64,000 nucleotides of DNA from an uncultured Nitrososphaerota archaeon (GCA_963799845.1 CAWCYI010000006.1:480001-544000); one strand, 5' to 3'. Shown: positions 1 to 19,888, numbered from the stretch's first letter. Notes: generated from the letters alone by a model not told the origin. Numbers and translations are program-made.

Positions 1-126
1 AGAAGCAAGATAGACTTCAACTTGACGGGAAGGCTCAGTGATGCGCTACGAACGACCGATCTCTCGGGATTTTGGAGATTTTTGTGCTCTAAAAAGGATT
101 AAGTCGCCTGTGTTTCTTGATATCGA

Positions 127-405
127 TTGTCCCCCTGTCCGTGTCCCCAGGGCGACGTCACAATGCAGTGGGGCATGAACGTAACTTCCGTGCCAGGAAG
201 CACACTTGCGCACACCTTCACGATTCCCTCTTTAGGTGTCAATATACCAGTTGTCGGTGGGGACACAGTCATGGCCTATCTCCGCTTTGATCAAACTGGC
301 GTTTTCCAATGGTTCTGTCAGACTCCTTGCGGTCTTGGACCGACTGGCACGCTGGGAGCAATGTCACAGGCTGGCTGGATGGAAGGCCAGATAACAGTAA
401 CCTGA
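127..405 (+). pseudogene. Cupredoxin-fold protein, C-terminal part only (5' truncated or frameshifted)
   Basis: HTFTIP...WFCQTPCG...M..GWMEGQITV copper-ligand pattern; no signal peptide or convincing start. Confidence 0.6.
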
Positions 406-459
406 GACTCAATTCTGAGCCTTGATAAGAAAAGTTTCGACCTACGTAGATGACATTCG

Positions 460-1086
460 TTGAGAAGACTCTGGATGGTTGTCTCGGGCGTCGTAGTCGC
501 TCTTGCCCTCCTTCTGATAATAATCGCAGGGTATGTTCTTGACTATCAGTCAGGGACTTCGATGTCGAACATAATAGGTCAGATGATGGGAGGCCAGTAT
601 TCTGGCCTTGTGAATCCTATGCCCACTCACGTTTGGTTAACGATGATTGCGCTAATCGCAGCGTTGGCAGCTAGTGTAATCGGAACTCTGTACTATGTTA
701 TGTATCCAGAGATAAAACAAACAGCGGAGCCCACAGACACCGAGAAGAGCCTATCAAATTCGGATGCAGTCGATAAGGCTCCTCCAACTAATTCGACTAG
801 CGATTCCACAGCACCTTCAAAAGAAAGTTGGTCGATGCTTATGCGGACTTCCAAGCCAGAGGAAAAGAAGATCTTGGAGGTCCTTTCAGCCCACAACGGA
901 GTCTATCTGCAAAAATTAATAGTCAAGGAATCTGGTCTGAGCAAACTGAAAACTCATCGAATAATTTCTCGCTTCGTGGAGCGTGGAATCGTGACTGCAA
1001 TGAAGAGTGGTAACACCAATGAAGTGAGATTATCCCCGTGGTTGAATCAACCTTCTCAAACAGATAAACCCTCGAAAAACGAGTGA
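460..1086 (+). CDS. Membrane-anchored winged-helix (MarR-like) transcriptional regulator
   Basis: Two N-terminal TM helices with an MMGG motif; C-terminal EKKILEVL...LQKLIVKESGLSKLKTHRIISRFVERGIV wHTH. Confidence 0.75.
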   Translation: MRRLWMVVSGVVVALALLLIIIAGYVLDYQSGTSMSNIIGQMMGGQYSGLVNPMPTHVWLTMIALIAALAASVIGTLYYVMYPEIKQTAEPTDTEKSLSNSDAVDKAPPTNSTSDSTAPSKESWSMLMRTSKPEEKKILEVLSAHNGVYLQKLIVKESGLSKLKTHRIISRFVERGIVTAMKSGNTNEVRLSPWLNQPSQTDKPSKNE

Positions 1087-1148
1087 TATTGAAAGTCATT
1101 TTCTCGCAACTCATCGGTACTTCTCTACTGCCTCTTGCATGACTCTTC

Positions 1149-1171
1149 GAAACGTGAAACGGTTTCGTTTC
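1149..1171. promoter_or_regulatory. Palindromic candidate operator upstream of the cupredoxin gene
   Basis: GAAAC-GT-GAAAC-G-GTTTC-GTTTC inverted repeat about 55 bp before the ATG at 1226. Confidence 0.4.
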
Positions 1172-1225
1172 AGCGAACTTCCATACGCCCCTTGTTTCCA
1201 TATACTAAGGCTAGGTTGAAATAAA

Positions 1226-1783
1226 ATGAAAACAAGGACAATGATCGTATTAGGAACCGCAGTCGCCGTAGCCGTCGGATTGACTTTGCCGTTCGCCAGC
1301 GCGTATGGAACTTCTGGTGGACTACAGGGGTTGATCAGCGGAATGATGGGGAGAAACACACAGGAGTCATCATATCCATCAATGATGGGTAATGGTTACA
1401 GCTATGGAGGCGGGATGATGGACCAAGGTGGGATGATGTCGTCAGGATCGATGATGGGTAGTAATTATGGCAGCTCCTGCTATCAGTATATGCAGAACTA
1501 TTACTCCACCAATGTTAGCCGAGGAAACCTGGTCATCATCTCTGGATATTCCTTCCATCCGTCTAGCTTGACAGTTACAAGGGGCACGACCGTCACTTGG
1601 ATCAATATGGATTTCGCCACTCTCACGGTAACTTCTGGAACCGAGCAAAACCCTACAAATCTCTTTGATTCTCACGAACTCTCACATATGGAGAGCTTCA
1701 GCTATACTTTCACATTCCCAGGTGTCTACCAGTACTATTGCGATATTCATCCAGGAATGGTCGGAACGATAACCGTGACTTAG
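1226..1783 (+). CDS. Secreted plastocyanin/azurin-family blue copper protein with a Met/Gly-rich N-terminal region
   Basis: Signal peptide; GTTVTWIN and YYCDIHPGMVGTITV type 1 Cu motifs; the first His ligand position appears altered (DFATLTV). Confidence 0.85.
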   Translation: MKTRTMIVLGTAVAVAVGLTLPFASAYGTSGGLQGLISGMMGRNTQESSYPSMMGNGYSYGGGMMDQGGMMSSGSMMGSNYGSSCYQYMQNYYSTNVSRGNLVIISGYSFHPSSLTVTRGTTVTWINMDFATLTVTSGTEQNPTNLFDSHELSHMESFSYTFTFPGVYQYYCDIHPGMVGTITVT

Positions 1784-1814
1784 GGAAAAGGCGATTCTCA
1801 GATTTGGTAATCAT

Positions 1815-2390
1815 GTGGTCGTCTTTTATTTCATCGAGGACATTGAAGTTAGGGTCTGGGAGTACTCAAGATCGGAGTGGACATTTGATTTGAGCAGAGA
1901 CGGAATCTCAAAGGTCGTTGTCATCTCCCTCGCTGCGATTGTGATTGCAATCGCGATTTTCGGAGGCTACTTGGCATATTCTCTGAATAATCCTAATAGA
2001 AACGCCTCTTCCAGCTCGAAAACGAATGCTAGCATCTCGCTCGCAGGTTTTTCCATCGATCCTGTCAGTTCAAATCTTTCAGGAACTGTCTTGGTAAGAA
2101 GTAGTTCACCCCTAGTTCAGACAGACCTTTACATCAATGGGACTTTCATGGGTTCAGTGAACTACACAAAGGGAATGATGTCGAATTCAACTTATTCCCT
2201 GATGTACTCAACTAATCCGAGATTCATGCCGATGATGTCTAGAATGCAGATGGTCGCTGGGAGAAGCTACATGATCACGTTGATGGCAGTGTTCAGCGAC
2301 GGAACGAGGTTCAATGCATCTTCGGCTGTCGTTGCTGGAGAGAAATATCAAATGGGGTCTTCGTCAAACGGAATGATGTCTTCAACTTAA
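1815..2390 (+). CDS. Met-rich membrane-anchored hypothetical protein (true start probably TTG near 1890)
   Basis: Single TM, Ser/Met-rich extracellular domain, located in the copper cluster. Confidence 0.6.
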   Translation: MVVFYFIEDIEVRVWEYSRSEWTFDLSRDGISKVVVISLAAIVIAIAIFGGYLAYSLNNPNRNASSSSKTNASISLAGFSIDPVSSNLSGTVLVRSSSPLVQTDLYINGTFMGSVNYTKGMMSNSTYSLMYSTNPRFMPMMSRMQMVAGRSYMITLMAVFSDGTRFNASSAVVAGEKYQMGSSSNGMMSST

Positions 2391-2439
2391 CATACGATCC
2401 CAGATTTGATAGTGAAAGAAGATAAATCTAACAATCAAA

Positions 2440-2820
2440 TCACGTAGTTGACGTTGGAGAGTCAGTACTTTCTGAAAAAATAATCAGATGTCGATCAGGA
2501 TCGCATACCACAAATTCTTTCATGCCGTATTCCTTTTGCGCCAAGTGGCCGCTGACGATATCTTTTGCAAGACATTGTTCATAGAGTTCATCAATCCCCC
2601 TCATGCCTATGTAACAAACAGATCTCTTTGGATTTTCGGACGGCTCGAAGAGATTGAAGTGAATTTCAATTCCGTCCCGCTCAATTATCAGGAAACCCTC
2701 GTCCTTGTAAGCCGGTTGGAAACCCAATTTTTGGTAGAAATCAACCGTTTCATCAAAGTTTGTTGAGGCAAAACGAGGGGCTATGCTCAGTAGTTCACTC
2801 TTGGTTTTCTATTGAGTCAT
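2440..2820 (-). CDS. VOC/glyoxalase-bleomycin resistance family protein (in-frame TAG at codon 4 after ATG 2820)
   Basis: SIAPRF...ETVDFYQKLGF...YGMKEFVVCDPDRHLIIF; homology extends upstream of the called ORF. Confidence 0.75.
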
Positions 2821-2949
2821 GATGAATTCGTTCACTCAGTTGAGATGAAACAATTACGTTTTCTGTCGCGATTTCAATAATTGGACGGGTGAGAAATCCT
2901 CGCTGGGAATACGATTCTTTGAAATATCAGCAAGGGCCAGATTTACTCC

Positions 2950-3369
2950 ATGCACTTGCGACTTTGGCGGAGCAAGTATCATTCTGGCTCCGCGTTGCCA
3001 GTAATAAATGAGAGAAACCTGGAGCAGCCCCCTTGGTGCTATCTGCTATGGGGAGCGCCTGCGGTTCTCGCTTTTGTGACATCATACGGCTACGACCGTT
3101 ATTTCTTATCCGTTACTGAGGCAGGAATTTTCTGGACTTTGTCAGTGGCCTGGATTGGAATTGGATGTTTGCTCAATGGCAGGTTTTGTGGCAGAGTACA
3201 CTGTTTGATAGATGGAATCTCCTTTCCGCTTCTGGCCATCATAGGAGTGCTCAATATTCTCTCAGTAATAGCAATCAGTTGGAGCCTGTTTTGGGCATCG
3301 TTCTTTGTGATACTGGCTACAAGTTTTGGTGCAGAGCTGGTTTTGGGAAGGTACCGTCCAAGGAGTTAA
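2950..3369 (+). CDS. 4-TM membrane protein with a Cys/His motif (possible metal transport or binding)
   Basis: GCLLNGRFCGRVHC motif between TM helices. Confidence 0.6.
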   Translation: MHLRLWRSKYHSGSALPVINERNLEQPPWCYLLWGAPAVLAFVTSYGYDRYFLSVTEAGIFWTLSVAWIGIGCLLNGRFCGRVHCLIDGISFPLLAIIGVLNILSVIAISWSLFWASFFVILATSFGAELVLGRYRPRS

Positions 3370-3371
3370 GA

Positions 3372-3524
3372 GTGAATTTGTCTATCAAATGCGCAGACTG
3401 CAATTGTTTACCTGCCGAATGCGCTGCAAGTGAATCTGCCATATCCTGTCCTAATTGCAATCAAGAGATATGCTGTTGCTGGGAAGCAATCCATGAAACT
3501 GGAACGTTCTCTAACTTGAAATGA
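3372..3524 (+). CDS. Small Cys-rich (metallothionein-like) protein, 50 aa
   Basis: AGGAG RBS at 3361 and GTG at 3372; 9 Cys (CxxCxC...C...CxxC...CCC). Confidence 0.55.
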   Translation: MNLSIKCADCNCLPAECAASESAISCPNCNQEICCCWEAIHETGTFSNLK

Positions 3525-3683
3525 TCAAACCCAATAAAATCGCAATAAACATCGGGACGTAATCTGGACGGAAGTTATCGCTACTATTGGAAGAAAGAAC
3601 TTTCCGAATCAGGTTGCGATTTAACAAAATTCCGAGATACCCAGTGATGCGTAAGAAGCTAAATACCCTTGTTTTCAGCCTCT

Positions 3684-3711
3684 GTTACTAGTAAACACGT
3701 GCGCGAATCCC
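3684..3711 (+). repeat. 28-bp repeated site, copy 1
   Basis: GTTACTAGTAA-ACACGT-GCGCGAATCCC; matches the copies at 7913 and 16137. Confidence 0.75.
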
Positions 3712-3948
3712 GTGTCTAGCCAGAGTTCATATTTCAGCAAATTATTTGAAACGGATCGGAGAATGGTAGGTTGACGGAGAAAGTCGCGATGGTTATTGGT
3801 GCTCTTCAGGTGCCATATGGTCCCCCTGAAGGTCCTAAACGGTCAATCATGTCTAGGTCGGACTTGCTGAGGCTTAGTTGAGTCGCAGCCACACTCTCTT
3901 CGAGCTGTTGTTCTGACTTCAACACAGTCAGTGATAGTGATCATTCAC

Positions 3949-4767
3949 TCAAGTTGACCCCGAGTCCTCTTCCTGTTCGATCATTTCCCTACCAGGCGAT
4001 ACGCGACTGAGGGGAGCAAGTGACCTGGCGTTTCGGTAGAGACAATACGTTGCGACAACGATCAATATTTGGAAGACATTGTAGCCAATGGCATAGATTC
4101 CTTTGTAGGCAAGAAAGTAGAGGAATCCGCTTGGAAATGCTCCGCCCGACGAGCCTTGGATCACTAACGAAATCGCTATAATCGCGGCCAGAACGAACAA
4201 GACGAAAAGACCGAACCATTTTAGATTCGTCCTTCGCGCGTCGCTCCTCGTTCTCCTTGCCGTGAGCAGGAGTGCGGGAGCTCCTGCAAGAAAAGTCGGT
4301 AAGTACACCGCTATGATCAAGACTGTCGCTACCGTTGCAACGGGAACCCCGGTGGCTGTTTCTAAGACGAGCAACCCAAAATAGAATGCAATCATCGCAA
4401 GGGTCATGCCCCAAACGCCGAACCGAAGTTTGCTCCATTTGAGAGTGTCCCTGAAGAGCGGATCAGATCGGCGGGCGGTGCGGACGGTACCGTCTATCCA
4501 GGCAAGCAGTACTATCGGCAGAGCTCCGACGTAGAAAACACTGATCACAAGCTGGGTGAGCGGGTCTGTGCTCATCGGTGTCGGGAGTACGGGTATCAAA
4601 AAGATGCAGACAACGCCAAGCCAAAGAGCTTGGCTCCGCGAAAATCGATTCCTGAGCACTCGTCTCAATACGAACGCCCAGTAAGCGGCATAAGCCAGGA
4701 TTGCACCTGCGACGATATCCTCCGCAAAGACCGCACCTATCATCATCAATATAATGTCACTTGGCAT
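3949..4767 (-). CDS. Polytopic (about 7 TM) membrane protein, putative sensor
   Basis: Multiple hydrophobic helices; ATG 4767 overlaps the stop of the upstream KaiC-like gene. Confidence 0.7.
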   Translation of the reverse strand: MPSDIILMMIGAVFAEDIVAGAILAYAAYWAFVLRRVLRNRFSRSQALWLGVVCIFLIPVLPTPMSTDPLTQLVISVFYVGALPIVLLAWIDGTVRTARRSDPLFRDTLKWSKLRFGVWGMTLAMIAFYFGLLVLETATGVPVATVATVLIIAVYLPTFLAGAPALLLTARRTRSDARRTNLKWFGLFVLFVLAAIIAISLVIQGSSGGAFPSGFLYFLAYKGIYAIGYNVFQILIVVATYCLYRNARSLAPLSRVSPGREMIEQEEDSGST

Positions 4768-5434
4768 ATGCACTAACCTCCATCCCCTTAGAAGTAAAAG
4801 ATACATCATAGTATCCAGGGTGAGGGGGAACTCCCCTCATCTTCCTGATCCTCAACAACGGGAGGACTTTGAATCCTTCCTCGTAGAGTTTGAATTCGAT
4901 TACGCCGTCGAAGAGTTGTCGCATCGAGCTCAGCGTCTTCGTATCGTGCATCCCTTCATCCATCGTCGCAAGCAACACAATGTCGTACTGTTTGAGATCC
5001 GACAATAGTTGAGAGAGGAAGCTGTACATCATCTCCGGGGGATTCAGGACAAGGAGCGGAGAAAGAACGTCGGTAACAATCCTTATCCTTCGTTTACTGT
5101 TGCTCCTTGCGAGCTCCTTGAGCTTCACCGATATGGCAGTCAAGTCATTTATGTCAAATTTGATCTGCCCACCTTCACTTGCAAACCACACCGGACTCGC
5201 TTGACTCAAGTCGATTTTGTATCCCCTGACGTCCTCGAGAACATCATGGACGGGCAGCCTCGTCATGTAGACGCAAAAATCTCCGAGGTCGAGGCCCGAC
5301 TTCGTGAAGAAGTAGCCCAGTACTTCCTTTCCGGCGTCAGGACTCCCAAAGACTAGCACTGCGGACTTACTTGGATAGCCATCTCCACCTAAAATCGCGT
5401 CAAGGGATCCAAAGCCGGTGGAAACCAAAGTCAA
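4757..5434 (-). CDS. RAD55/KaiC-like single-domain ATPase
   Basis: STGFGSLDAILGG, degenerate Walker A GSPDAGKE, LFDGVIEF, LRIRKMRG. Confidence 0.85.
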   Translation of the reverse strand: MTLVSTGFGSLDAILGGDGYPSKSAVLVFGSPDAGKEVLGYFFTKSGLDLGDFCVYMTRLPVHDVLEDVRGYKIDLSQASPVWFASEGGQIKFDINDLTAISVKLKELARSNSKRRIRIVTDVLSPLLVLNPPEMMYSFLSQLLSDLKQYDIVLLATMDEGMHDTKTLSSMRQLFDGVIEFKLYEEGFKVLPLLRIRKMRGVPPHPGYYDVSFTSKGMEVSAYAK

Positions 5435-5561
5435 CAGCGACCGAAGAAGACTTTCAAGATAAACGTTTGCTCACAGCCCGGGACGATTAAGAAAACCTGT
5501 TTCCGCGGCAGGCCAATTTCGGAAAAGTATTTATCGAGTTAGGAAAGCTCCAGCGCACTCA

Positions 5562-5858
5562 ATGCCAGATGAAAATAACGGAAAGGGTACGCTGAAAGAA
5601 TTTGTTGACAGACTAAACAACGATCCGGCGACTCGTACGCAATTTCTCTCCAATCCCGTAGAAATCCTTCGAGGCTACGGGATAACGCTGTCGAAGTCAG
5701 CAGAAGAAGGACTGATGCAAATCATAGAAGAGTATCGCGAAAAGATCGCGTCGATTAGAGAATTACAAGGTAAGACAATAACAACAACTACAACAACAAC
5801 GACGACAGAAAGGAATGACTCCATAGAACCAGTTGGAGGTACGATGGACTTCATCTGA
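5562..5858 (+). CDS. Putative RiPP precursor with an NHLP/Nif11-like leader and a poly-Thr tract
   Basis: LKEFVDRLNNDPATRTQFLSNPVEILRGYGITLS resembles NHLP-clan leaders; ends TITTTTTTTTT...VGG-TMDFI. Confidence 0.6.
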   Translation: MPDENNGKGTLKEFVDRLNNDPATRTQFLSNPVEILRGYGITLSKSAEEGLMQIIEEYREKIASIRELQGKTITTTTTTTTTERNDSIEPVGGTMDFI

Positions 5859-5909
5859 GCGAGAATTGACCGAAAGCCCAATCTACTCAGAATTCGGTTC
5901 GGAGATAGG

Positions 5910-6845
5910 GTGGATAAGGAGGACCGTCAGCGAGCACGCCCTAATGCTGCCTTCGGTTTTCAAGCATTCCTTCATTATTATCTCAATGATAGACTAAAGA
6001 TCCTTACGAATGCGGTTCCAAAGGAAGCGAAGCTTGGCAGAGTATTTCCCTACTCGATCTTCTGGTTAGCCAATGCCCTTCCCAAATCAGAGCTTGCGAA
6101 TGTTCGCAAGCTCGCTCTTTCGGGAGTTTACGATTGCCTGAGTGTTACGATTGCAGATGACTTGCTGGATCGCCAAATCGAAGCGGATCGCGCAATACTA
6201 GTCGCGCTCGCCGGCGAGTATGCCAACATGCGCGCCAAACTACAAAGAGAACTTTTCGTTCCCAAATCAAGATTTTGGGATATCGTTTCATATTGCAGAG
6301 CCGACGCGGCCAAATACAACAGATGGAATTCGATCTGTACCGCATGGTCGGAGCCTTTGTCGGATAAATTCCTTCGGGATTCCTCGCGGTATGTTGTCTC
6401 TGTATTGCTGCCAGGTCTTGCTGGCGTCGCTATACTAGCTAGAAGTGAAAACAGGATAGAGGAGATCTCACGCTTCCTGAGGACTTTCTCCATGGCTTGG
6501 CGCATAGTTGACGATATCTGGGACTGGGAGGAAGACCTCCACGTGCGAAACTTGAACAATTCAACAATCCTCCATCTGATAAGGGCAAAGTCCGGAGCCG
6601 ATAAAATGTCAAACGAGATTGTCCTAGCCAAGTTCCTCGATGATAATTTTGTACGAGAAATTTACCAAAGGGCGTTAGAGCTCTTGAAAAGAGCTAAGAA
6701 AAGCTCGCACCAATTGAATTGCCCATATTTAGAGGAGTTCATGGAGAGCCAGATTGATTACCACGCCAGTCAGCGCGACTCGCTGCTGGGCTCCAACAAG
6801 TCTTTCCGGAGAGAGCTGACGAGTTTGCTCCCTGCAATCTCATAG
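5910..6845 (+). CDS. Class I isoprenoid synthase/prenyltransferase-fold enzyme
   Basis: Two Asp-rich motifs, DDLLD and DDIWDWEED, in an all-helical protein. Confidence 0.75.
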   Translation: MDKEDRQRARPNAAFGFQAFLHYYLNDRLKILTNAVPKEAKLGRVFPYSIFWLANALPKSELANVRKLALSGVYDCLSVTIADDLLDRQIEADRAILVALAGEYANMRAKLQRELFVPKSRFWDIVSYCRADAAKYNRWNSICTAWSEPLSDKFLRDSSRYVVSVLLPGLAGVAILARSENRIEEISRFLRTFSMAWRIVDDIWDWEEDLHVRNLNNSTILHLIRAKSGADKMSNEIVLAKFLDDNFVREIYQRALELLKRAKKSSHQLNCPYLEEFMESQIDYHASQRDSLLGSNKSFRRELTSLLPAIS

Positions 6846-7137
6846 GACAGCTAGGATTCGGAGTATTCGCCACAACCAGCGCTAAGAACTTCGCTGTTAC
6901 CGATCGCGATCAACTCCGTGATCCAGTTGACAAGTGAACAGCTGGAGACTTCTCTACAAAATTTAGAACGTTGAACGATGCGTGGAATGTGATTTTGCTT
7001 TCCAGTTTTTGGAGGACAGAAGGGAAATCCGTGCTTGAGAACCAGCGGTTAAGCGAAGTAACCGCGAACGAGAAGAAATTTCTCAAGAAGTGGAAGCGTT
7101 CGAAAAAGTCTGAAGATGAATCCAGACAAAAGGAGGA

Positions 7138-7655
7138 TCGAAAATTCGAAGATGGGAGACGGCTTTGCGCCATTATGATCACTGACATTGTTGGTTACAG
7201 TGCCCTATCTCAAGAAAATGAGACGCATTCTCTTGAAGTTCTACAGAAGCACAATAGTTTGCTACGCGAGTTCTTCCGGAAGTACGGTGGTGTCGAGGTG
7301 AAGACAATGGGCGATTCTTGGTGGACGTACGGTTGGCTGGCCGGACTGGTTTGGGCATACGCTAGATCGGGCAAAGAAGGAAGAAGCCAAGAAAATTCAA
7401 GAGCAAGTCCAAGAATTTTCAAAGACACATTATGTAAGGTCGGATTGGCTGATTGTTATTCATCAGAGATTGGGCGAGAACGACGAGGCCATCCGGCTCC
7501 TAGAAAAAGCCTACGATATGCGGGAATACGATTCGTTGACCGGCATAAACGTTGAACCAATGTATGACGTCATACGTTCTGACCCGCGGTTCGTAGCGCT
7601 ATTGAAGAAAATAGGACTGGACGAATACGGCAATCTCGCGATTCCTTCTGGGTAA
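7138..7655 (+). pseudogene. Class III adenylate/guanylate cyclase-TPR gene remnant (internal deletion plus frameshift)
   Basis: RRLCAIMITDIVGYS...VKTMGDS joins directly to the TPR C-terminus ...RSDPRFVALLKKIGL. Confidence 0.8.
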
Positions 7656-7912
7656 CCTGACGCGGCTGGAGAGAGCTTACGAGTAACATTCTGGTTATCT
7701 GGTTGCGATCAGCTTCTAACAAACTTTCGACGACCTTCATCATGACCCCAGATTTCAGGCTTAACTGAAGAAAATTGGTTTTCCCGACGCAGGGTGATTC
7801 GATCGAATCTACCATCTAAACGCTGGCCTAGAGACGAACAAGAGGCCAACTTGGAAGCAAGAAAAAGAGTAACATTTTGACTCAAATCTTAATGTTCTGA
7901 GCTATTGCAATC

Positions 7913-7950
7913 TTTACTAGTGAATACGTGTCCGAATCCCGTACCTCGCA
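7913..7950 (+). repeat. 28-bp repeated site, copy 2 (similarity extends to TACCTCGCA)
   Basis: TTTACTAGTGA-ATACGT-GTCCGAATCCC-GTACCTCGCA. Confidence 0.8.
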
Positions 7951-8801
7951 AACCTTTTCTTTAGGGCGTGATCGCCCTAAGACAGAGTACTGAGAGTACT
8001 GAATCAGATACTTCTTCTAATAAAAGTCGGAACCAACCAAGCCGCTCGCCGCCCAGCTCCGATAGGAGTTCCAACACCAACTAGTGCTGCTCGCATCGTA
8101 AGTAAATGCGCAAAACGAAGAACTATCGAGTTCATTAAGCACTCCTAAGGAAAATTATCGTATTCTTTCTTTGGAACGAAAAGTAAAGTCGAGCTGTTCA
8201 AGGAGAACGAGGAGAGGTCGAAAGGAAAACTACTGGAGCGCATACCTCAATAGTTCACAGTATGATTCCACAGACCAGATGACTTCGATTGCATTCACAT
8301 CCTCGAATCCGCAGAACGGATTCAGAGTCGGATTCATGCGGTAGAAACGCTCACCTGCCAGTTTGCGTGAATAGTCCTCTGAGACAAACAACTCCTCAAA
8401 GATTAGTTCGATAGGAAGCGCTTGTTCTTGTATCTGCATCTATTCTTTTTCACCTGGAATTTTGGGTCTGAATCCAGTGATGTTCGCTAAGATTCCTGTT
8501 GATATTAGATTAACAATATCTGACATTTCTACTAAGCCTCTTTCTCGACACTTAGACAGGGGAAAACTTCCCACATGGATGTGGACGAAAAACTAGTGAT
8601 AGCAAAATAGCTATCGGCGGCAGAAAGTTAGATCTTTTGAGTGGGCGATTCATGCTTATTCAGAAACTTTTACGGGTTTTCCCAAATATGTGCGGGATGT
8701 TCAGTTATCGTAAGGATTTTGAGCAACAATTGATTTAGACTGCCCTAAAGTGACAAGAAATGTTTTGGAGGGACCTGTGTTTTGGGTAAATAATACACAT
8801 C

Positions 8802-8862
8802 GGTGCCAGGGATGAACTCTGGATTCGGATCGGGTGCCAGGGATGAACTCTGGATTCGGATC
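8802..8862. repeat. Tandem duplication of a 30-bp unit
   Basis: GGTGCCAGGGATGAACTCTGGATTCGGATC at 8802 and 8833; single copy in segment B. Confidence 0.9.
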
Positions 8863-9035
8863 CGAATTTCTTTCCAAGAGGAAAATTGCAGAAAAGTAAG
8901 TTTGGGATAATCTTGAAGTTCTTCTTACATGAGCAAAATGGCCCATTTATTGAAAGTCCGATTCAGAATTGAGATTTTCTGATCCGCTGCGAAAACACGC
9001 GACTCAACTTCGAGATTGAAAGAGCTAACAAACGT

Positions 9036-9184
9036 AATCATTCGATTTTGACCAACATCGCGAATTGGGTGCCCCAATTTGATTAAAAAACCACTTTGGG
9101 GATTTTTTTACGTGTTTGGGAGAATTCATGCTTTAGCCCAAACCCCTCATTCATCAAATTAGCGGTTTCCCCGAAGATTACGAT
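9036..9184 (-). ncRNA. Candidate structured 3' element, copy A
   Basis: Near-identical to 10840-10984; nested stems AATTTGAT/ATCAAATT and GTTTGGG/CCCAAAC. Confidence 0.4.
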
Positions 9185-9484
9185 TTATGCCAGCGGCGCG
9201 ATCAATTGAAGGGATCCAACTTGTCCTAATACATTTGCATAAGTTTCTACAACTCGAGCACCTTTCTCAGTGAGCACGTAATTTTTTCTGCCCCGTACAT
9301 CGCTCGGGCTCACCAACCCCAATTCTTCGAGACTCCTAATGAAATTCCTGCAGACAGCCCATGAAAGCTTTGTTCGGTACATGATGTGAGTCGGCCTACC
9401 AGCTCCATCAAAAATAGCTTGGAGAATATCAATTTTCACTTCCATGTTGGATCTTCTTGGACGTGATGTTATCATTGTTGGCAA
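9185..9484 (-). CDS. Winged helix-turn-helix transcriptional regulator, paralog A
   Basis: RRSNMEVKIDIL...PTHIMYRTKLSW...YVLTEKG, typical archaeal small wHTH. Confidence 0.85.
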   Translation of the reverse strand: MPTMITSRPRRSNMEVKIDILQAIFDGAGRPTHIMYRTKLSWAVCRNFIRSLEELGLVSPSDVRGRKNYVLTEKGARVVETYANVLGQVGSLQLIAPLA

Positions 9485-10049
9485 AATTATGTCATTCTGG
9501 TCACTTTAAGAAGCTCTCGCATTCTGTACGGCTGATCACCAATTCATGTTATGAGTACGCAACACGGTTACCTCTTAGGACTCTATGTTTGATCGAAAGG
9601 GACACAACTTCCTAAATCGGAACAACAAAAGATCGCATCATATCGAATCCCGAACAAACGATAAAGATCAGTTTAAGGCTAGCTATTTTTCAGACGAACG
9701 AATGATTTTTGACCGCATTTACTTCGAGATTCTGACCTTCGGCTTTCTCGTGACTGTAATCGTTGGAACAGCTTCGATTTCTTTCTGAGGACTTTCTTAA
9801 AAGAAATTTCACTGTCCAGTTCGAGTATGCCTTAAGTCATTCAAAATCCCAGCCGCGATCCCGAACGTCTGATTGACACAAACGCAATCAAGCCGTTCGC
9901 GCAATTCTGACTCGAAAGACACATGGAATCCTTCCGAAGCCTGAGATTAGATACCTGAAGCGATATGTGAGCACATTGAGAGAGTTTCGGGTCAAGTTGG
10001 TATGAATTAAGCAAACTGAGCTAGTAGTTCCTGGTATAAAGGCGGAACA

Positions 10050-10443
10050 GTGAGTGCTCAAGCGCAGCTCGAGGTTATTAGAAAGATGGTTGGGCAACTA
10101 AATTCGAAACGTCCGAAGTGCAAGGAAGTTGGAGCGAGCTATGATTTCCGTGGTCGTGAAGGTGTGGTCAAGATAAAGTACAAGGGCACAACGCATTTCC
10201 CCGTAGATGACCTACGAGTATCTCGAGGGACCGTTTGCGGGTTCGAAGCTCTTTCAATACTACATCCCGAAAGGTGACAAGACGGAGGTCGTGATGGTGG
10301 GCAACCTCGTCTCTCCGAACCTACCCGATGACAAGCTCAAGGCACTCTACGATGATTATGTGCAGGTTGTCTTCGACGAAGATAACGTCTCCAGAATCGT
10401 ATATGGTATACTCAGATATGTGCGAGATGTTCAGTTATCGTAA
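10050..10443 (+). pseudogene. Frameshifted/truncated hypothetical protein (SRPBCC-like)
   Basis: Two overlapping ORFs; MTYEYLEGPFAGSK motif; the 3' end runs into the duplicated block at 10416. Confidence 0.45.
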
Positions 10444-10839
10444 GGGTTTTGACCAACAATTGATTTCGTCTGCCCTAACATGAGGAAATGTTTTGGAGGG
10501 GCCCAGGTTTTGGGTAAATATAATATCGGTGCCAGGCATAAACTCTGGATCTAAATTTCCCTCCAAAGAGGAAAGTTAAAGAAATTTGAGTTCAAGGTAG
10601 TTTGAAGTTCGTTATACTTGAGGAAAGGTAATTCGCAGCCGATTTGACCAGTTCAGAAAGCACTTGATGACTCCAAAGGCTTACTCAGTTATCATTTTTA
10701 GCATGTCGGATCCAACCTCAAGAAGGCTTGACAATAGCGTAAGGCCGTTTATGCTATTCCATTCCTGTTTTTCTCTGATTTAATGTGATTTTTTGCGTTG
10801 CAGGGAACATGACTTTCTACACGAATGATCGGTTGAACA

Positions 10840-10984
10840 AATCATTCGATTTTGACCAACATTGCGAATTGGGTGCCCTAATTTGATTAAAAAACCACTT
10901 TGGGGATTACGTGTTTGGGAGAATTCATGCTTTAGCCCAAACCCCTCATTCATCAAATTAGGCGGTTTCCCCAAAGATTACGAT
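10840..10984 (-). ncRNA. Candidate structured 3' element, copy B
   Basis: Outer stem CCTAATTTGAT/ATCAAATTAGG is perfect in this copy. Confidence 0.4.
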
Positions 10985-11287
10985 TTATGCCAACGGTGCG
11001 ATCAATTGAGGAGATTCTAGTTGCCTTCTAACATTTGCATAGGTATCTAGAACTCGGGCACCTTTCTGGGTGAGTGTGTAGTTCTTTCTGCCCTCCGCAT
11101 CGCTCGAGCTGACCAGTCCCTGCTCTTCGAGAGCCTTTACGAAATTCCGCATAGGTGCCCATGAAAGGTTTGATTGGTACATGATGTGTGTTGGCCTGCT
11201 AGCTCCTTCCGAAATCGCCTGGAGGATATCGATCTTGACATCTAGCTTGGATCTTCTTGGACCCGCTGTTGTTATTGATGTAGTCAT
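10985..11287 (-). CDS. Winged helix-turn-helix transcriptional regulator, paralog B
   Basis: About 70% identical to 9185-9484 by manual alignment. Confidence 0.85.
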   Translation of the reverse strand: MTTSITTAGPRRSKLDVKIDILQAISEGASRPTHIMYQSNLSWAPMRNFVKALEEQGLVSSSDAEGRKNYTLTQKGARVLDTYANVRRQLESPQLIAPLA

Positions 11288-11467
11288 TGTATTTCATAGA
11301 TATGTAATAGGTATGTCGTACTATATACATCTATGTCGAAGATTCCCTGAGGATTTCCATTTGATCCGTCCAGGGGAAGTTAACAAGATCGCAACATATC
11401 GGATTACGAGCAAACGCCTAAATTTATTTCCAAAAATCATCAGAAATCTACAAGGAAAGCAAACGAC

Positions 11468-11630
11468 TTGTCTCATCATGTAATCCTAGGTTGCAGGATC
11501 GGCGCATTCGATTTCCTGAATTGGGGAGACATTGAACCAATTGAGAAAAATAGCGTTCTTCTCGCGGCAAAAGATCACGATTTACAGAGGAACGAACGAG
11601 GAATACTGTTCTTTCATAACCCCGTTGCCC
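11468..11630 (+). pseudogene. Tyrosine integrase fragment
   Basis: LGCRIGAFDFLNWGDIEPI resembles the box I (catalytic Arg) region of thaumarchaeal integrases; the rest is missing. Confidence 0.55.
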
Positions 11631-11933
11631 TAGTCTCAGTCTGGATCCTCACGCTTTGCGGCTCTTACTTCTATAGTCCCATCCATCGACTCGTAAGTAA
11701 TGACCTGACCCTTTGGTAATCCAAGAATCGGCTCGAATGACATACTCGTCACTTTGAGAAGATAGATCCCTTATTCTCTCTTCTAGTTGTTTTTTTGTGG
11801 CAAATGAAGGACGTGCCTCAGACACGGACAACGTTGAACGATGGATTTATTGTTGGATATTTTTCTAATGCCATATCGATCTAACGATAGGGCGTTCTAC
11901 ATGTCATACGTGGATGCAGCGGTGGCGCATGCA

Positions 11934-11950
11934 CGTCAATGATATTGACG
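11934..11950. promoter_or_regulatory. Perfect palindrome upstream of the Lrp pair
   Basis: CGTCAAT-GAT-ATTGACG. Confidence 0.35.
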
Positions 11951-12142
11951 GGGTAAAGGCGCAAAAAGGCGCATCTCCCTTTACCACAATCCGAAGTATC
12001 GCAAGACGTTGATGCCATCGCCATTAACGCAAACGACTTGTCCGACGGTCTGAAACGAGGAATGTCACTTTATATAGCATAGAAAACTGTTATAGGCAGT
12101 TATTTACCTATCCCTCCCCAACTATAACTGCTGAACCTGGCG

Positions 12143-12604
12143 ATGTATTCGCAACTGTCGGATTTGGACAGGAAGATGCTAAGGCTACTTCTGGATTCTG
12201 AGGGGAGCATGCCGACTCATGAAATGTCTATGCAGCTCGGTATTCCCTTGAGCACCGTCCAAAGAAGAAGGAAGAGATTAGAGGAAGAATATCTCATCAA
12301 GCATTATTCGTTAGATCCGATGAAATTTGGATATAGACGGATCGACCTCTTAATTTACACTCAAGGTGGCGAGACGATGAACATTGGAAAAGAATTGTTG
12401 GAGCGTGAAGAGGTAACCTACGCTGCAAGAACCATCGGAGAACATACTATAGACTTGCGCGTCGAAGTATTTGTAAAGGACAACGGTATTTTGCTCAATC
12501 TCCTTGAAGACGTAAAGGCCATGAAGGGAGTGAGAGACGTAGTCTGGACTGAAGTGATAGAGACTATCGGACGAAAGAATCCTCCAAATCACTTCGTTCT
12601 GTAA
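12143..12604 (+). CDS. Lrp/AsnC family transcriptional regulator, paralog 1
   Basis: LSDLDRKML...LGIPLSTVQRRRKRLEE HTH plus RAM domain. Confidence 0.9.
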   Translation: MYSQLSDLDRKMLRLLLDSEGSMPTHEMSMQLGIPLSTVQRRRKRLEEEYLIKHYSLDPMKFGYRRIDLLIYTQGGETMNIGKELLEREEVTYAARTIGEHTIDLRVEVFVKDNGILLNLLEDVKAMKGVRDVVWTEVIETIGRKNPPNHFVL

Positions 12605-12722
12605 TTAGTTTACTTTGAAAATTCGATCCTAAATTCTTTCACCCGAAACGCCTTCTCGTTCCTCTGATAACGAAACAGAATCCCAAATATTTATCTTGGG
12701 CATTTTTTGATTTTATGCCAAA

Positions 12723-13184
12723 ATGCTTTCTCAGCTTTCAGAAGCTGACAGGGAGATGCTACTTCTTCTTCTGGATTCTGAGGGAGGGGTGTCCTCTATT
12801 GAATTATCCCGTCAGCTCAAAGTCTCGATAGGTTCTATCCGAGAACAACGAAAGAGATTGGAAGAAACTTGTCTCATCAAAGATTATTCGTTAGATCCAA
12901 CGAAGTTTGGGTGGAGACGAATTGATCTTCTCATCTATACTGAAGGTAGAGAGACAATGAGCATAGGGAAAGCGCTACTGAAACGCAAAGAGGTTACATC
13001 TGTTACCAGAATGATTGGAGAACACACAATCGACTTGAGGGTTGAAGTATTCGTCAGAGATAATGGCGAACTGCTCAATCTCATCGAGAAAATAAAGACT
13101 ATGATAGGCGTGAGAGACGTAGTCTGGACTGAAGTAGTAGAGACCGTAGGAAGGAAAAATTGGCCGAATCGCATTTTAGTTTAG
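12723..13184 (+). CDS. Lrp/AsnC family transcriptional regulator, paralog 2
   Basis: Tandem paralog of the same length with a diverged HTH helix. Confidence 0.9.
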   Translation: MLSQLSEADREMLLLLLDSEGGVSSIELSRQLKVSIGSIREQRKRLEETCLIKDYSLDPTKFGWRRIDLLIYTEGRETMSIGKALLKRKEVTSVTRMIGEHTIDLRVEVFVRDNGELLNLIEKIKTMIGVRDVVWTEVVETVGRKNWPNRILV

Positions 13185-13669
13185 GCTATACCTAGATCAG
13201 ATCGAAGTTAGGGCACCAAATAGACATTTTTGGTATAAATCCAATGATTTTCTTGGCCAATGTCTTATATCAAGGTCATCTCCATTTTAACGCAAAAAAC
13301 TGTACCAGTGATGAACTGGAATGGAACCCGAAAAGGAGAAGAACTAGGCAATGGCAATCTATATACCAAAATCAAACAACTGCTCAAAGATGAGACCTTG
13401 GTTGGATAATACTTCACTTTCAATTGCTCCTGATGACTAATTTAGTTGGATTAGGCACTGTTTGTTGCATTTTGTAGTAAGCTCGCTGCTGAGAAATGTC
13501 GGGTCGCGTTTTATATGAATCCTAGATACATAGACGCCCTAAGTATTCAGCAGATAAACCACATATTGGATTTACTCTTCTGCTACTGTCTCTTAATTCA
13601 TAATTGATTTAATCTGCATAGTATTTCATATACTCAAGGAAAATCGAGAATTGCCATCTGATACAACTT

Positions 13670-14728
13670 ATGATGTTGATACAGCAGCAAGAATGGACGA
13701 AATGGTGGAAAACGAAAAGATTGCAGCTGATAGTGCGATCTGCAAGACCCCAAGTCTCGGTTATCGGAGTCGGCGGCGCAGGCTGCAACATCGTCTCCTG
13801 GGTCAAGCAGAAGAAGGGCGGCATAGCCGGCACGAAATTGATTGCGGCAAATACTGATGCGACGCACCTCAGCATAATCAAAGCAGATCGGAGGATCCTG
13901 CTCGGGGAGAAGACAACTCGAGGAATGGGAGCAGGAGGATATGCGGAGAGAGGCGTAGCAGCTGCTAGAGAATCAATCGAGCAGGTCAAGAAAGACACTG
14001 CTGGATCAAACATAATTTACATCGCAGCCGGACTTGGAGGAGGAACCGGTACCGGAGCTTCGTGGGTTATTGCGGACGCTCTTCGACCAACGGGCGCTCT
14101 GATAATTGGAGTAGTTACTCTTCCCTTTGCAGTTGAAAGGTTCAGGTTCCAGAGCTCAAAGGACGGACTTCATAAGTTGAAAGGTTACTGCGACACTGTC
14201 GTTGTCATCGACAACAACCGACTAGCTAAAGTTGCAGGTGATCTTCCATTGAAGGAAGCGCTCGGAGTTGCAAACGAGCTTGTCGGCGAATTTGTCAAAG
14301 GAATCACCGAGACAATTACAACCGCGAGTTTGATCAACATCGACTTTGCGGACTTAAGGGCGATCATGGAGAAGCGAGGAATCGCAGCGATTGGAGTTGG
14401 CGAGTCTACTGGCGAATCGAGAGTAGAGAGAGCCGTTCAGATGGCGCTCGATGCTCAGCTGCTCGATATCAAGGATGCGACTAAGGCCTTTGGTGTGCTG
14501 ATCCACGTTTCTGGTGGTGACGACATCACTCTGGACGAAGTTACCCAGGCAGGAGAGATGGTCACGAGATCTCTTCCAGCAAAGGCGCAAGTCGTCTGGG
14601 GAGCGAGAGTTGACCCCACGCTGCAGGGAAAGGTCAGGGTCATGGTAGTTCTCACCGGAATTGAGAGCACGTTTGATACGGAAAAAACTAACTCCATATC
14701 CCGGATGATCAGATCAAGATCCAAGTAA
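13670..14728 (+). CDS. ftsZ: Cell division GTPase FtsZ (N-terminus probably in another frame, from 13651)
   Basis: VIGVGGAGCN, NTD, GLGGGTGTG, NIDFADL, VVWGARVD motifs. Confidence 0.95.
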   Translation: MMLIQQQEWTKWWKTKRLQLIVRSARPQVSVIGVGGAGCNIVSWVKQKKGGIAGTKLIAANTDATHLSIIKADRRILLGEKTTRGMGAGGYAERGVAAARESIEQVKKDTAGSNIIYIAAGLGGGTGTGASWVIADALRPTGALIIGVVTLPFAVERFRFQSSKDGLHKLKGYCDTVVVIDNNRLAKVAGDLPLKEALGVANELVGEFVKGITETITTASLINIDFADLRAIMEKRGIAAIGVGESTGESRVERAVQMALDAQLLDIKDATKAFGVLIHVSGGDDITLDEVTQAGEMVTRSLPAKAQVVWGARVDPTLQGKVRVMVVLTGIESTFDTEKTNSISRMIRSRSK

Positions 14729-14845
14729 TCTGATATCGGAAGCACGCGTCATTTCTCGGGGCGAAAAATAGAAAATCCCTTTTATTTTTCCAGAATTGGG
14801 ATATTCGGCCCAAACAAAGCAAGAGAATCTAAAGTAAGAAGACGA

Positions 14846-15193
14846 TTGGCGCATGAGCTGGGAATCTGTTCATTCTGCCTTAAGCAGAAAAACAATCGAA
14901 AGATAATATGTTGCTCTGAAGAATGCTATAGACAATTCAGAAATAACTTTTCCTTTTGGATAAAATCTCGGCAAGATTTGAGGGATAATGCATTACAGAG
15001 AGATGGATACAAATGCAAAAAGTGCGGTAAAAAAGCAACCGATATAGATCATATTATAGAAATCATAGATGGCGGCCCAGAATTTGAACTAGATAATTTA
15101 CAGTCGCAATGCGAGGATTGCCATAAGAAAAAGACGCGGGAGAGCTGGAAGATAAGAGCAAATAGCGGGGCTAATCTAACCGAGCGAAACTAA
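14846..15193 (+). CDS. HNH endonuclease
   Basis: RDGYKCKKCG...DHIIEIIDGG...NLQSQCEDCHKKKT. Confidence 0.9.
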   Translation: MAHELGICSFCLKQKNNRKIICCSEECYRQFRNNFSFWIKSRQDLRDNALQRDGYKCKKCGKKATDIDHIIEIIDGGPEFELDNLQSQCEDCHKKKTRESWKIRANSGANLTERN

Positions 15194-15206
15194 GGGAAAT
15201 TTCCCG

Positions 15207-15515
15207 TTATCGAGATGAACGAAACCGAAATTTGCTTCCGTAAATGACTCGGAACCGCAACAAATGAAACCATTCGCTCGTTCTGATTTCACTCCGATCA
15301 GTTTCAGAACTTCCCTTAGAAATGAAACCATCAGCAAAATGGGCAACTGAGAAACTTGGAAGTTTGTGAATCTCTTCGATTAGTTCTTGACGAGACTTAG
15401 CAAGGTGAGAAACGATTCGAATTAATCCTTCGTCCGAGGAGAGCTGATCGCATAGATCATGCAACGATTCTTCGTATTCGTCTAGCGGATTCTTCGATGT
15501 TTCTTTGACGGTCAA
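15207..15515 (-). CDS. Hypothetical protein
   Basis: ORF with plausible composition; no recognisable motif. Confidence 0.35.
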   Translation of the reverse strand: MTVKETSKNPLDEYEESLHDLCDQLSSDEGLIRIVSHLAKSRQELIEEIHKLPSFSVAHFADGFISKGSSETDRSEIRTSEWFHLLRFRVIYGSKFRFRSSR

Positions 15516-15664
15516 TTTGCTTCAATCTCTTCAATATCTGCTTCTTTCGTCTCTGCAATTCTACTAGCTCATACTTTTGAAGCCCCATCTTCTTGGCTAT
15601 TGTTTTACGGATCTTCAGATAGAACCTTCTACGGCCTGAATATTTCTACGATTGATTTCTGCAT
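15512..15664 (-). pseudogene. Degenerate AbrB/MazE-like small DNA-binding protein
   Basis: FYLKIRKTIAKKMGLQKYELVEL on the minus strand, out of frame with ATG 15664. Confidence 0.35.
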
Positions 15665-16136
15665 GTCGATCATCAAGAGAACGATGGACGTCGATATTGC
15701 TTCGTACCTGAATAAACCGGAGCACGCCCTCAGGGCCAGAACTTGACTCCTGTAAAGCCGACGTGAAATAGTAAGCCAAATCCATGTCTAACAAAAGCGA
15801 TGGGATAAACTTCCTCCTCCGAGCGGTCCGCTCGAACTACCGGGATAGCAGATCCTCCCGATTTGAGAGATCTGTATTCACTGAAAGCTTCGCCGAGTAG
15901 ATCGCATCTCCAGTACACCTCACCAGACGGATTTTGACGCAGGGTATGTATAAGAACCGGCGACCGCATCCTTCGATTGCTTCAGAGTTGAACTGACTGG
16001 GTTCTGGTTAAATTCAAAGATGGGAGGAAATCGACCAATTCGTGATTGATTTGGGTCAAATCAAACTATTCATTTTGAATCCAAGAAATGACCTCAGGTG
16101 GCTTTGAAATCCCAGAGATTTGGACTTGAATTGGCT

Positions 16137-16174
16137 TTTACTAGTAAATACGTGTCCGAATCCCCTACCTCGCA
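16137..16174 (+). repeat. 28-bp repeated site, copy 3
   Basis: TTTACTAGTAA-ATACGT-GTCCGAATCCC-CTACCTCGCA. Confidence 0.8.
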
Positions 16175-18166: not shown

Positions 18167-18262
18167 GATTCTCTATTCATCTCGATGCTTGATTGATAAA
18201 TCCGTTGCGGGATTGTCGACAGCCCAGCTCGCCGTATTACGCTAAACCGTGTGAGGGTGTCG

Positions 18263-18347
18263 TCCCGATCCTTACCTACATTGAAACAACTAGGAAAGGG
18301 AGCAGAGACGGGGGTCTCACATTCTTTATTTCAATGGAGGTTCGGGA
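18263..18347. other. Long imperfect hairpin at the island/core boundary
   Basis: TCCCGA/TCGGGA, ACCT/AGGT, CATTGAAA/TTTCAATG and GAGAC/GTCTC nested stems. Confidence 0.5.
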
Positions 18348-18564
18348 GGCCGCGATGTGGTTCTTTATGTAGGAATTCCCATTGATTCATTAAGAAAAGA
18401 ATTTTCTACGTTTCTACACATGTGAGCACTTTTTGGCCGAAGAGCTGCGTCCAAGCTCTGTTCAATTGAAACAGCTTGTTTCACCTGTCCGGAGCTTAAA
18501 CAGAGTTCGAAACGCCGAGTTCGATTTTTTCATTTGAAAATGATTGATTAGATCCGATTGAAGA

Positions 18565-19191
18565 TCAGGCGATGGGCTGGGAAGCTTGCTTCTCGACTGT
18601 CTGAGCTTTCGACACGAGTCCCTGCTTTGCGACCTGCTTTCTCTGCTGATCGGGATCATGGCTGAGCCCAAAATAATCTGCGAACGCATCGGTCGTCGTG
18701 AAAACTCTCGACCTCCCTCTTCTTTCATACTTCAGAAAGCCGACTTCGCTCAGCTCCTTCAGATGGGAGTACGCCTGCGATCCCCGCCGCTGAACCAGTT
18801 CGTGCGCACTTACCGGCTGCAGGTACACTATGTAAGAAAGTGTCCTCAGCGTTGACGTGGACAGGAGAGCCTTTGTCGCAAATCGCTTAGCAATCGAGTT
18901 GTATATTGGCTTCAGCTGTAGGGAGTACATCGGCCCCTCGATCTCCTTGAGCTCGATGGAGACGAATGTGGAATTGATTTTGCCAGCCAGCTCTCGCATG
19001 ATTTCATTCAGTCTTCTCTTCGAAACAATCCTTGAGACCCGGGAGAGTTCGTCGAGAGTAAGTGGCCGGCCGGACGCGTAGAGAGCCACCTCGATTCTCG
19101 CCTGGGCTTCTTTCGAGAGAACTATGGATGAATCTGGCTCGACAGTTGGACTCGACGATACCTCCTCTTCAACACGGGAAACTGAAGCCAT
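18565..19191 (-). CDS. scpB: SMC-Scp complex subunit ScpB
   Basis: IEVALYASGRPL, TLSYIVYLQPV, TTDAFADYFGL; lies downstream of smc/scpA. Confidence 0.9.
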   Translation of the reverse strand: MASVSRVEEEVSSSPTVEPDSSIVLSKEAQARIEVALYASGRPLTLDELSRVSRIVSKRRLNEIMRELAGKINSTFVSIELKEIEGPMYSLQLKPIYNSIAKRFATKALLSTSTLRTLSYIVYLQPVSAHELVQRRGSQAYSHLKELSEVGFLKYERRGRSRVFTTTDAFADYFGLSHDPDQQRKQVAKQGLVSKAQTVEKQASQPIA

Positions 19192-19203
19192 TTTGTTACA
19201 TCC

Positions 19204-19884: not shown

Positions 19885-19888
19885 TATT

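Follow-up and report, generated by a model that had tools for sequence, protein, structure and literature searches.

A candidate two-gene cassette for a RiPP, a peptide that is made on the ribosome and modified after translation, lies near the beginning of the 64,000-nucleotide stretch of DNA analysed here (hereafter, the window), which corresponds to C6:480001-544000 of a 4.6-Mb genome (G000; nine contigs, 87% complete) of an uncultured soil archaeon that probably belongs to the order Nitrososphaerales. Open reading frame (ORF) calling and reading of the DNA showed four ORFs of 98, 311, 225 and 286 amino acids (aa). On the plus strand, the 98-aa precursor-like gene (5562-5858) encodes a segment resembling the leaders of the NHLP clan (approximately residues 11-58), then a linker rich in Thr and, at the C-terminus, a short hydrophobic tail that ends in VGGTMDFI; it is followed by a gene for an enzyme with a fold like that of the trans-isoprenyl diphosphate synthases (abbreviated trans-IDS), of which the 311-aa ORF listed at 5910-6845 is the larger part. 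On the minus strand, a 225-aa, single-domain KaiC/RecA-like protein (4757-5434; Pfam PF06745) is encoded together with a hydrophobic, multi-pass membrane protein of 286 aa (3949-4809), in which about seven transmembrane segments can be counted by eye and whose gene overlaps the end of the KaiC-like gene. In an earlier annotation of this DNA (the original prediction), the KaiC-like gene and the seven-transmembrane (7-TM) gene had been described as divergent from the precursor gene across a 127-bp intergenic region, and our coordinates (5435-5561) agree with this.

The 311-aa ORF contains two Asp-rich motifs, DDLLD at residues 83-87 and DDIWD at residues 201-205, and has an Arg (Arg198) three residues before the second motif. 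The structure model is all-helical (predicted local distance difference test score, pLDDT, 79; predicted template-modelling score, pTM, 0.80), and its top Foldseek matches are trans-prenyl diphosphate synthases, MoeN5 and Ord1, with template-modelling scores of 0.44-0.63. Across the 31 family members aligned, the two DDxxD motifs vary little or not at all; in the first motif, D98 is invariant and D99 and D102 are conserved in at least 90% of the sequences. The model, the Foldseek matches and the conserved motifs agree with the isoprenoid-synthase fold and the two DDxxD motifs that had been proposed for this protein. Scans of the enzyme against Pfam and NCBIfam gave sub-threshold matches only, the Pfam family polyprenyl_synt (PF00348) among them (E 0.16; 11.6 bits, with the cut-off at 27).

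Where does the enzyme gene begin? Its homologues are approximately 325-340 aa long, open with a conserved helix (IYSEF...WIR) and have about 33 N-terminal residues more than the listed ORF. In tblastn searches, residues 1-33 of the homologue P0002 matched 5866-5964 in frame 1 and residues 32-325 matched 5958-6839 in frame 3, and the N-terminal residues (1-33/35) of P0003 and P0007 likewise matched 5866-5964/5970; a profile match covers 5872-5973. Because the N-terminal residues of the homologues, about 33 in number, are encoded in the window in another frame, the enzyme gene starts at the TTG codon at 5866, only 7 nucleotides (nt) after the precursor stop codon. The gene on the plus strand then consists of an N-terminal part in frame 1 (5866-5970), which encodes the conserved helix, a main body in frame 3 (5958-6845) and, where the tblastn segments of the two frames overlap (5958-5970), the site of a 1-nt frameshift, to which we return below. 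The 51-bp gap between the two genes and the GTG start at 5910, on which the original prediction had relied, are thus artefacts, the N-terminal part being encoded from TTG 5866.

The enzyme family appears to be rare. A word-indexed search of 5.8 billion found four family proteins, and a profile search of 1.84 billion found 179 representatives at E values up to 1e-3, a number that falls to 55 with a limit of 1e-10 and to 36 with a limit of 1e-30. Within the order, strong matches are present in 3 of 401 genomes (G000, G040 and G284), with six weak, partial matches in one genus; in a phylum sample, 2 of 401 genomes have the family, with no further locus. A family-level search around G284, comprising 97 genomes that were already within the order sample, added no locus, and a close alignment (A1) had no match among the species genomes and, among the metagenomes, matched only L001 and L002, which are distant, high-GC loci of bacterial type (28% identity). 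The cluster look-up of ten family representatives returned metagenome proteins only, with no contig match to precursors. Among the more remote members, P0052 and P0053 are fusions with radical SAM/SPASM domains, and in the distant profile hits P0080 and P0122 the domain is joined to domains resembling squalene-hopene cyclase.

Which characterised enzymes is this family related to? The distant hits include Paenibacillus proteins, about 310 aa long, whose Asp pairs lie at positions 89 and 200, as PMC10853753 gives for PalQ. When species genomes were scanned with these Paenibacillus proteins, 80 loci were found in the Paenibacillaceae, among them one from P. alvei DSM 29 (record AMBZ01000001; PMC10853753 names this genome), in which PalQ, a PalX-like ORF and a 653-aa membrane histidine kinase are encoded. 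The family profile A2 matched 16 Paenibacillus proteins with a probability of 99.9% (E 1.8e-33; 293 columns) and, in hhalign, reached 99.3% against the PalQ of P. alvei DSM 29 (E 2.4e-20; 290 columns; 19% identity). Judged by these profiles, the homology of the enzyme family to PalQ is remote but clear. Kinship to enzymes of the ComQ and ChrPC kind would be more distant. PalQ is a Paenibacillus Trp prenyltransferase that, as described in PMC10853753, acts in vitro on the NHLP-type precursor PalX. In a 2026 review, the section on these enzymes states that all characterised trans-IDS-like peptide prenyltransferases (ComQ, PalQ and the P domain of ChrPC) target Trp, and the Gln just before the second Asp motif is described there, for Trp prenyltransferases and for Ord1, as a key determinant of Trp recognition (PMC13290415). 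At this position, the 31 members of the present family have 22 Arg and 9 Lys and not a single Gln (the window enzyme has Arg198), whereas all 16 of the PalQ-like proteins have Gln. A Gln before the second Asp motif is also present in canonical synthases.

The reading frame of PalX in the P. alvei DSM 29 record (L070, 5008-5295) continues past ...DNVRRF because one of its T runs contains five T, whereas the published core DNVRRFFW needs six. In the sister strain TS-15 (L074), PalX ends in DNVRRFFW, and the shortfall in L070 probably stems from a homopolymer error in that draft.

Nine consecutive Thr are present in the 98-aa protein, which terminates in EPVGGTMDFI. Among the 11 precursor homologues, matches to NHLP-clan models at E values up to 0.01 recur with NF038399 (10 of 11), TIGR04509 (8 of 11) and TIGR03793 (7 of 11), the best E value being 1.3e-6. 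A profile of the 11 homologues aligned with a profile of 74 PalX-like sequences at a probability of 65% (E 6.1e-5) over 32 columns, which span the core motif DPxFRxxLLxxPxxxLxxxGIxL. These comparisons suggest a weak but recurrent likeness of the 98-aa ORF to the leaders of NHLP-clan RiPPs. The C-terminal tails of the 11 homologues are MDFI, MDFI, VDFI, MLIV, FWPI, MLMV, PLVV, PMII, PLIV, MLLP and PMII, and their common trait is a hydrophobic C-terminal tetrapeptide. Trp is found near the C-terminus in one of them (FWPI, from G040), and the window tail TMDFI has none.

In all three archaeal genome loci, the enzyme gene is immediately preceded by a leader-type gene. In G284, an 87-aa precursor homologue ends 6 nt before the enzyme gene; on locus L016, the two genes are at 5968-6231 and 6238-7233. 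In G040, a member of another family within the order, the leader-type ORF is 84 aa long, has GGAAFWPI at its end and overlaps the beginning of the enzyme gene; it is itself preceded by a gene for a RiPP radical SAM C-methyltransferase of the TIGR03975 family (E 6.2e-186; 619 bits against a cut-off of 282). When a precursor hidden Markov model (HMM) was run against all six-frame ORFs of the 4.6-Mb genome and of the loci gathered for comparison, only these three places were found, the next best match having an E value of 0.15. Two further pairs are probably linked: P0002 with P0165 (contigs of equal length, 2952) and P0001 with P0005 (likewise, 17148), so that each pair probably shares a contig. 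The G040 locus (L006, on G040:C47) has the appearance of a complete archaeal RiPP locus, with the TIGR03975 enzyme, the precursor and the enzyme homologue at 5819-9135; further on, two proteins with no assigned family are encoded on the other strand, one of 577 aa and the other a multi-pass membrane protein of 452 aa.

The original prediction had also proposed a neighbourhood analysis of the precursor-enzyme linkage, for which the outcome is the pairing in all three archaeal loci and no precursor in L001 and L002, and a structural model of the leader together with the enzyme. For the latter, we used P0002 and P0165, the intact pair nearest to that of the window, each with its own alignment. 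The complex model scored 0.72, compared with 0.02 for the best of three controls; a mark of 0.72 is reached by 58 of 80 solved complexes and by 2 of 110 mismatched pairs. Between runs, at least 49% of the contacts coincide, the partner has a pLDDT of at least 65, and the modelled contacts join leader residues 11-68 to enzyme residues 218-259 and 303-323. Binding of the leader to the enzyme is thus supported by the modelling.

On these grounds, we consider it reasonably probable that the window holds a two-gene archaeal cassette of the RiPP type, made up of an NHLP-clan precursor and, 7 nt downstream, a predicted PalQ-like peptide prenyltransferase of the trans-IDS-like kind. In the mechanism that we propose, the helical leader of the peptide would dock on the C-terminal helices of the enzyme, as in the complex model; the two DDxxD motifs would bind Mg2+ and a prenyl diphosphate and ionise the latter, as the fold and the relationship to PalQ suggest; and the prenyl group would then pass to the short hydrophobic C-terminal tail of the peptide. 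The acceptor cannot be Trp, which all characterised relatives use: most tails lack it, and every family member has Arg or Lys in place of the Trp-recognition Gln. The earlier expectation that the chemistry would differ from that of ComX is supported by the same two counts (Trp near the end in 1 of 11 precursors; Gln replaced in 31 of 31 enzymes). Our best guess, which is speculation, is that the basic Arg or Lys might hold the free C-terminal carboxylate, so that the tail or the carboxylate itself might be prenylated. A family that has lost both the substrate Trp and the recognition Gln and that keeps its Asp motifs and its leader partner therefore points to a new acceptor chemistry. Were this true, there would be a lipidated ribosomal peptide in Archaea, a domain in which quorum-sensing mechanisms are described as poorly characterised in the part of PMC13464002 that deals with them. 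A literature search that extended neither to subscription journals nor to the supplementary files of the PalQ paper, which may already list distant relatives, found no report of an archaeal or a non-Trp member of the PalQ/ComQ kind. The fullest form of the idea, in which this would be the first archaeal peptide prenyltransferase and the first trans-IDS-like one that does not act on Trp, with its lipopeptide read by the KaiC-like and 7-TM proteins in some Nitrososphaerales, is a long shot.

Several observations weigh against this reading or against parts of the original prediction, as do the frameshift in the enzyme gene and the copy number of the KaiC-like and 7-TM genes, which are taken up below. 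First, all scores of the 98-aa ORF against the NHLP-clan models are under the curated cut-offs (NF038399, E 1.5e-4, 21.8 bits against 40; TIGR04509, 17.3 bits against 34; TIGR03793, 14.3 against 50.9), and the matches of the homologues are still below them; likewise, the alignment of the precursor profile with PalX alone is weak (11%, E 0.0027). The NHLP-type leader of the original prediction thus stands as a likeness that recurs in 10 of 11 homologues and not as a formal family assignment. Second, the Gly-Gly before the tail is present in the window, P0165 and G040, is replaced by GY in the close homologue P0006 and is absent from the seven others, and the Thr run is limited to 3 of 11 homologues. 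Hence, the Thr run and the ending VGG-TMDFI are indeed features of the window ORF, but neither the run nor the Gly-Gly characterises the family, and with Gly-Gly in only 3 of 11 homologues a conserved cleavage site at this position must be given up. Third, no shared nucleophilic side chain is visible across the 11 tails, and the complex model places the helical part of the peptide without placing the C-terminal tail confidently. Fourth, the archaeal genome context consists of three loci only, and the HMM detected no precursor ORF in the distant loci L001 and L002. Fifth, no protease or exporter was found among the neighbours scanned, as the original prediction had already remarked. Finally, the 36-nt motif that flanks the block has 19 copies in the 4.6-Mb genome at up to five substitutions.

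We considered whether the cassette in this particular organism might be a decaying remnant without present function, whatever the family does elsewhere; this is a serious possibility, falling somewhat short of even. In the enzyme gene, the reading frame shifts by 1 nt between 5958 and 5970 and lies one base earlier downstream of this site. The shift is most simply explained by the loss of one T from a short T run; the exact base is deduced from the DNA, and the lengths on either side fit a one-base loss. Among the sequencing runs X1-X4, the site is covered by X1 only, the short-read contigs of which span 5918-6900 with no differences and no gaps; these contigs, which have an Illumina-type adaptor tail, may come from the source sample. 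Because they match the window exactly, the frameshift is present in the reads and is not an assembly slip. Similarly, P0001, a 99% identical gene call on a 17-kb contig, has the same out-of-frame first residues and a different end. Reading of the sequence by eye revealed no canonical slippery heptamer at the frameshift site. Because the frameshift removes the conserved N-terminal helix, the cassette probably either was inactivated recently or makes a truncated enzyme only, and the copy of the enzyme in the window, as read from its sequence, is probably inactive. The truncated cyclase fragment downstream of the enzyme and the splitting of nearby KaiC-like and 7-TM paralogues are also consistent with decay. 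In contrast, the precursor ORF is intact, the 311-aa frame is open and keeps the Asp motifs and the modelled leader-binding surface, and a start at GTG 5910 could yield a truncated protein. Its frameshift lowers the value of the window copy for study, whereas the pairs of G284 and G040 are intact.

The gene downstream of the enzyme (6971-7555) encodes a truncated adenylate/guanylate cyclase catalytic domain that covers profile positions 9-63 of 183. A separate short ORF at 7470-7655 resembles, by eye, the C-terminal end of cyclase proteins, so that the gene appears to be broken.

A second possibility is that the KaiC-like and 7-TM proteins are the receptor and transducer of the modified peptide, which would make the four genes a quorum-sensing module resembling ComQXP or PalPXQ. 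Single-domain KaiC-like ATPases of Archaea have been proposed as signalling hubs. The KaiC-like ORF matched PF06745 well (E 1.1e-18; 67.9 bits against 26.6) and has one domain, not two as in the clock protein KaiC; its Walker A-like stretch is GSPDAGKE (GPPGIGKE in paralogues), with Glu where GK[ST] is usual. For the 7-TM protein, no Pfam or NCBIfam family was found, and the Protein Atlas returned only unnamed clusters, with scores of at most 0.87. A sensor role would find a parallel in the membrane histidine kinase PalP, which is encoded beside PalX and PalQ in P. alvei. Moreover, the enzyme gene of G284 is immediately followed, on the opposite strand, by counterparts of both genes, the KaiC-like one with 48% identity (E 8e-80) and the 7-TM one with 28% (E 4e-13); given about six copies per genome, adjacency by chance in both genomes is unlikely, with a rough estimate of about 1% or less for each.

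However, both genes are members of multi-copy families. The same contig has five other KaiC-like places (52-64% identity) and three other 7-TM places; at least five KaiC-like/7-TM pairs cluster within about 36 kb, most of these places being at C6:450643-469551, and some are split by frameshifts or stops. G284 has six KaiC-like paralogues at 49-55%, the copy beside the enzyme being the least similar of the six, and the arrangement there is convergent, whereas that in the window is divergent. Of the order's 401 genomes, 27 have the 7-TM family, frequently with six or more copies each, compared with 3 that have the enzyme family; the remaining 29 of 30 7-TM loci, each with a flank of about 1.5 kb, gave no match to the precursor HMM; and G040 has no KaiC-like match at E values up to 1e-10, its 452-aa membrane protein being unlike the 7-TM family. 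Finally, a cyclase-like gene is placed divergently beside the paralogue at C6:466671. This gene, together with the cyclase fragment after the window enzyme, suggests that the peptide-enzyme pair may be a mere insertion into such a unit. The KaiC-like/7-TM pairs have the look of a signalling module that expanded within particular lineages (families f1 and f9 of the order). That such a pair recurs next to the peptide and enzyme genes of one further genome argues weakly for a sensor role, which we regard as unlikely. The coupled sensor of the original prediction thus survives as a pairing that recurs in G284 and is missing from G040, and of the ComQX-like module as a whole, the core of a peptide plus a prenyltransferase is supported, while its sensor is doubtful and its enzyme is frameshifted in this genome.

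It is quite improbable that the enzyme instead makes a free isoprenoid, with the small protein acting as a helix-bound regulatory or small subunit as in the heterodimeric prenyl diphosphate synthases, even though the best Foldseek match is such a heterodimeric enzyme (the hexaprenyl diphosphate synthase 3aqb), both DDxxD motifs are intact as in chain-elongating synthases, the tails lack a conserved nucleophile and the model binds the helical part only; against this stand the sub-threshold polyprenyl_synt score, the replacement of the Gln by Arg or Lys in all 31 members, the position of the peptide prenyltransferase PalQ as the nearest characterised homologue by profile, the relatives that occur in, or are fused to, RiPP maturase contexts and the NHLP-clan-like character of the small protein.

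The block that comprises the peptide-enzyme cassette and the KaiC-like/7-TM pair lies between two plus-strand copies of a 36-nt motif (3685-3720 and 7914-7949), which are 81% alike over 36 nt; a third copy is at 16138-16166, and shuffled sequences are expected to give none. The motif has the pattern TTACTAGT..ACGTG..CGAATCCCGT... and is always in this short form on several contigs. The flanking copies that the original prediction had described as a 28-bp site are present, but, being dispersed through the genome, they are not ends specific to the block. No Rfam family matches the motif, which might serve as a regulatory site or represent a small repeat element. Integration ends derived from tRNA, which we also considered, were rejected, given that there is no tRNA in 1-20000, that the likeness between the copies ends at about 40 nt and that 19 copies are dispersed.

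A cupredoxin of the plastocyanin/azurin family, above the Pfam cut-off, is encoded at 1226-1783, and a COX2-like match at 127-405 is only sub-threshold (20 bits against 22); copper proteins of these kinds are common in Nitrososphaerales. On the other side of the block, two paralogous winged-helix proteins of 99-100 aa, the first of which was scanned and matches Pfam HTH_45, are encoded on the minus strand at 9185-9484 and 10985-11287. Each is followed by a similar short ORF (8925-9077 and 10780-10974), so that a unit of approximately 1.8 kb is duplicated in tandem.

How does the predicted archaeal cassette compare with known systems? Canonical trans-isoprenyl diphosphate synthases (PF00348) share the fold and the two DDxxD motifs; the window enzyme differs in falling below the Pfam cut-off, in the replacement of the Gln and in the coupling of its gene to a leader-type peptide gene. 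The ATPases proposed as signalling hubs in Archaea resemble the KaiC-like protein in having one KaiC domain and a coupled membrane protein, from which the GKE sequence and the lineage-specific expansion set it apart. The proteusin and other NHLP systems with TIGR03975 maturases share the core motif of the NHLP clan, and in G040 such a maturase is encoded beside the precursor homologue; in contrast, the window has no radical SAM gene, its leader scores are below the cut-offs and the cores are only a few residues long. The fusion proteins P0080 and P0122 have an architecture of the kind described for ChrPC-type fusions in the pertinent section of PMC13290415, a likeness that is by description, whereas the window enzyme is single-domain.

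The ComQ-ComX-ComP system of Bacillus subtilis likewise combines an enzyme of the isoprenoid-synthase superfamily with a small ribosomal peptide that has a short C-terminal core. ComX is not known to have an NHLP leader. In the G040 tail AAFWPI, Trp is third from the end, as is described for ComX168 in the portion of PMC13731918 that concerns it. ComQ, compared here by description, lacks the second Asp-rich motif according to the account in PMC10853753, whereas the archaeal-type family keeps it.

The closest resemblance is to PalP-PalX-PalQ. The fold and the spacing of the Asp motifs are alike (D89/D93 and D200/D204 in PalQ; D83/D87 and D201/D205 in the window ORF), and both systems have an adjacent precursor gene (of NHLP type for PalX, NHLP-like in the archaeal family), a very short C-terminal core and a membrane signalling gene next door. 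They differ in that the PalX-like gene lies downstream of PalQ in 78 of the 80 Paenibacillus loci, whereas the archaeal precursor lies upstream of the enzyme, and in that the neighbour of PalQ in the bacterium is a histidine kinase, whereas that of the window enzyme in the archaeon is the KaiC-like/7-TM pair. Above all, the two differ in their peptides: all 74 unique PalX-like sequences have Trp within the last three residues, 66 of them ending in Trp, compared with Trp near the end in 1 of the 11 archaeal-type precursors, which keep instead a hydrophobic tail.

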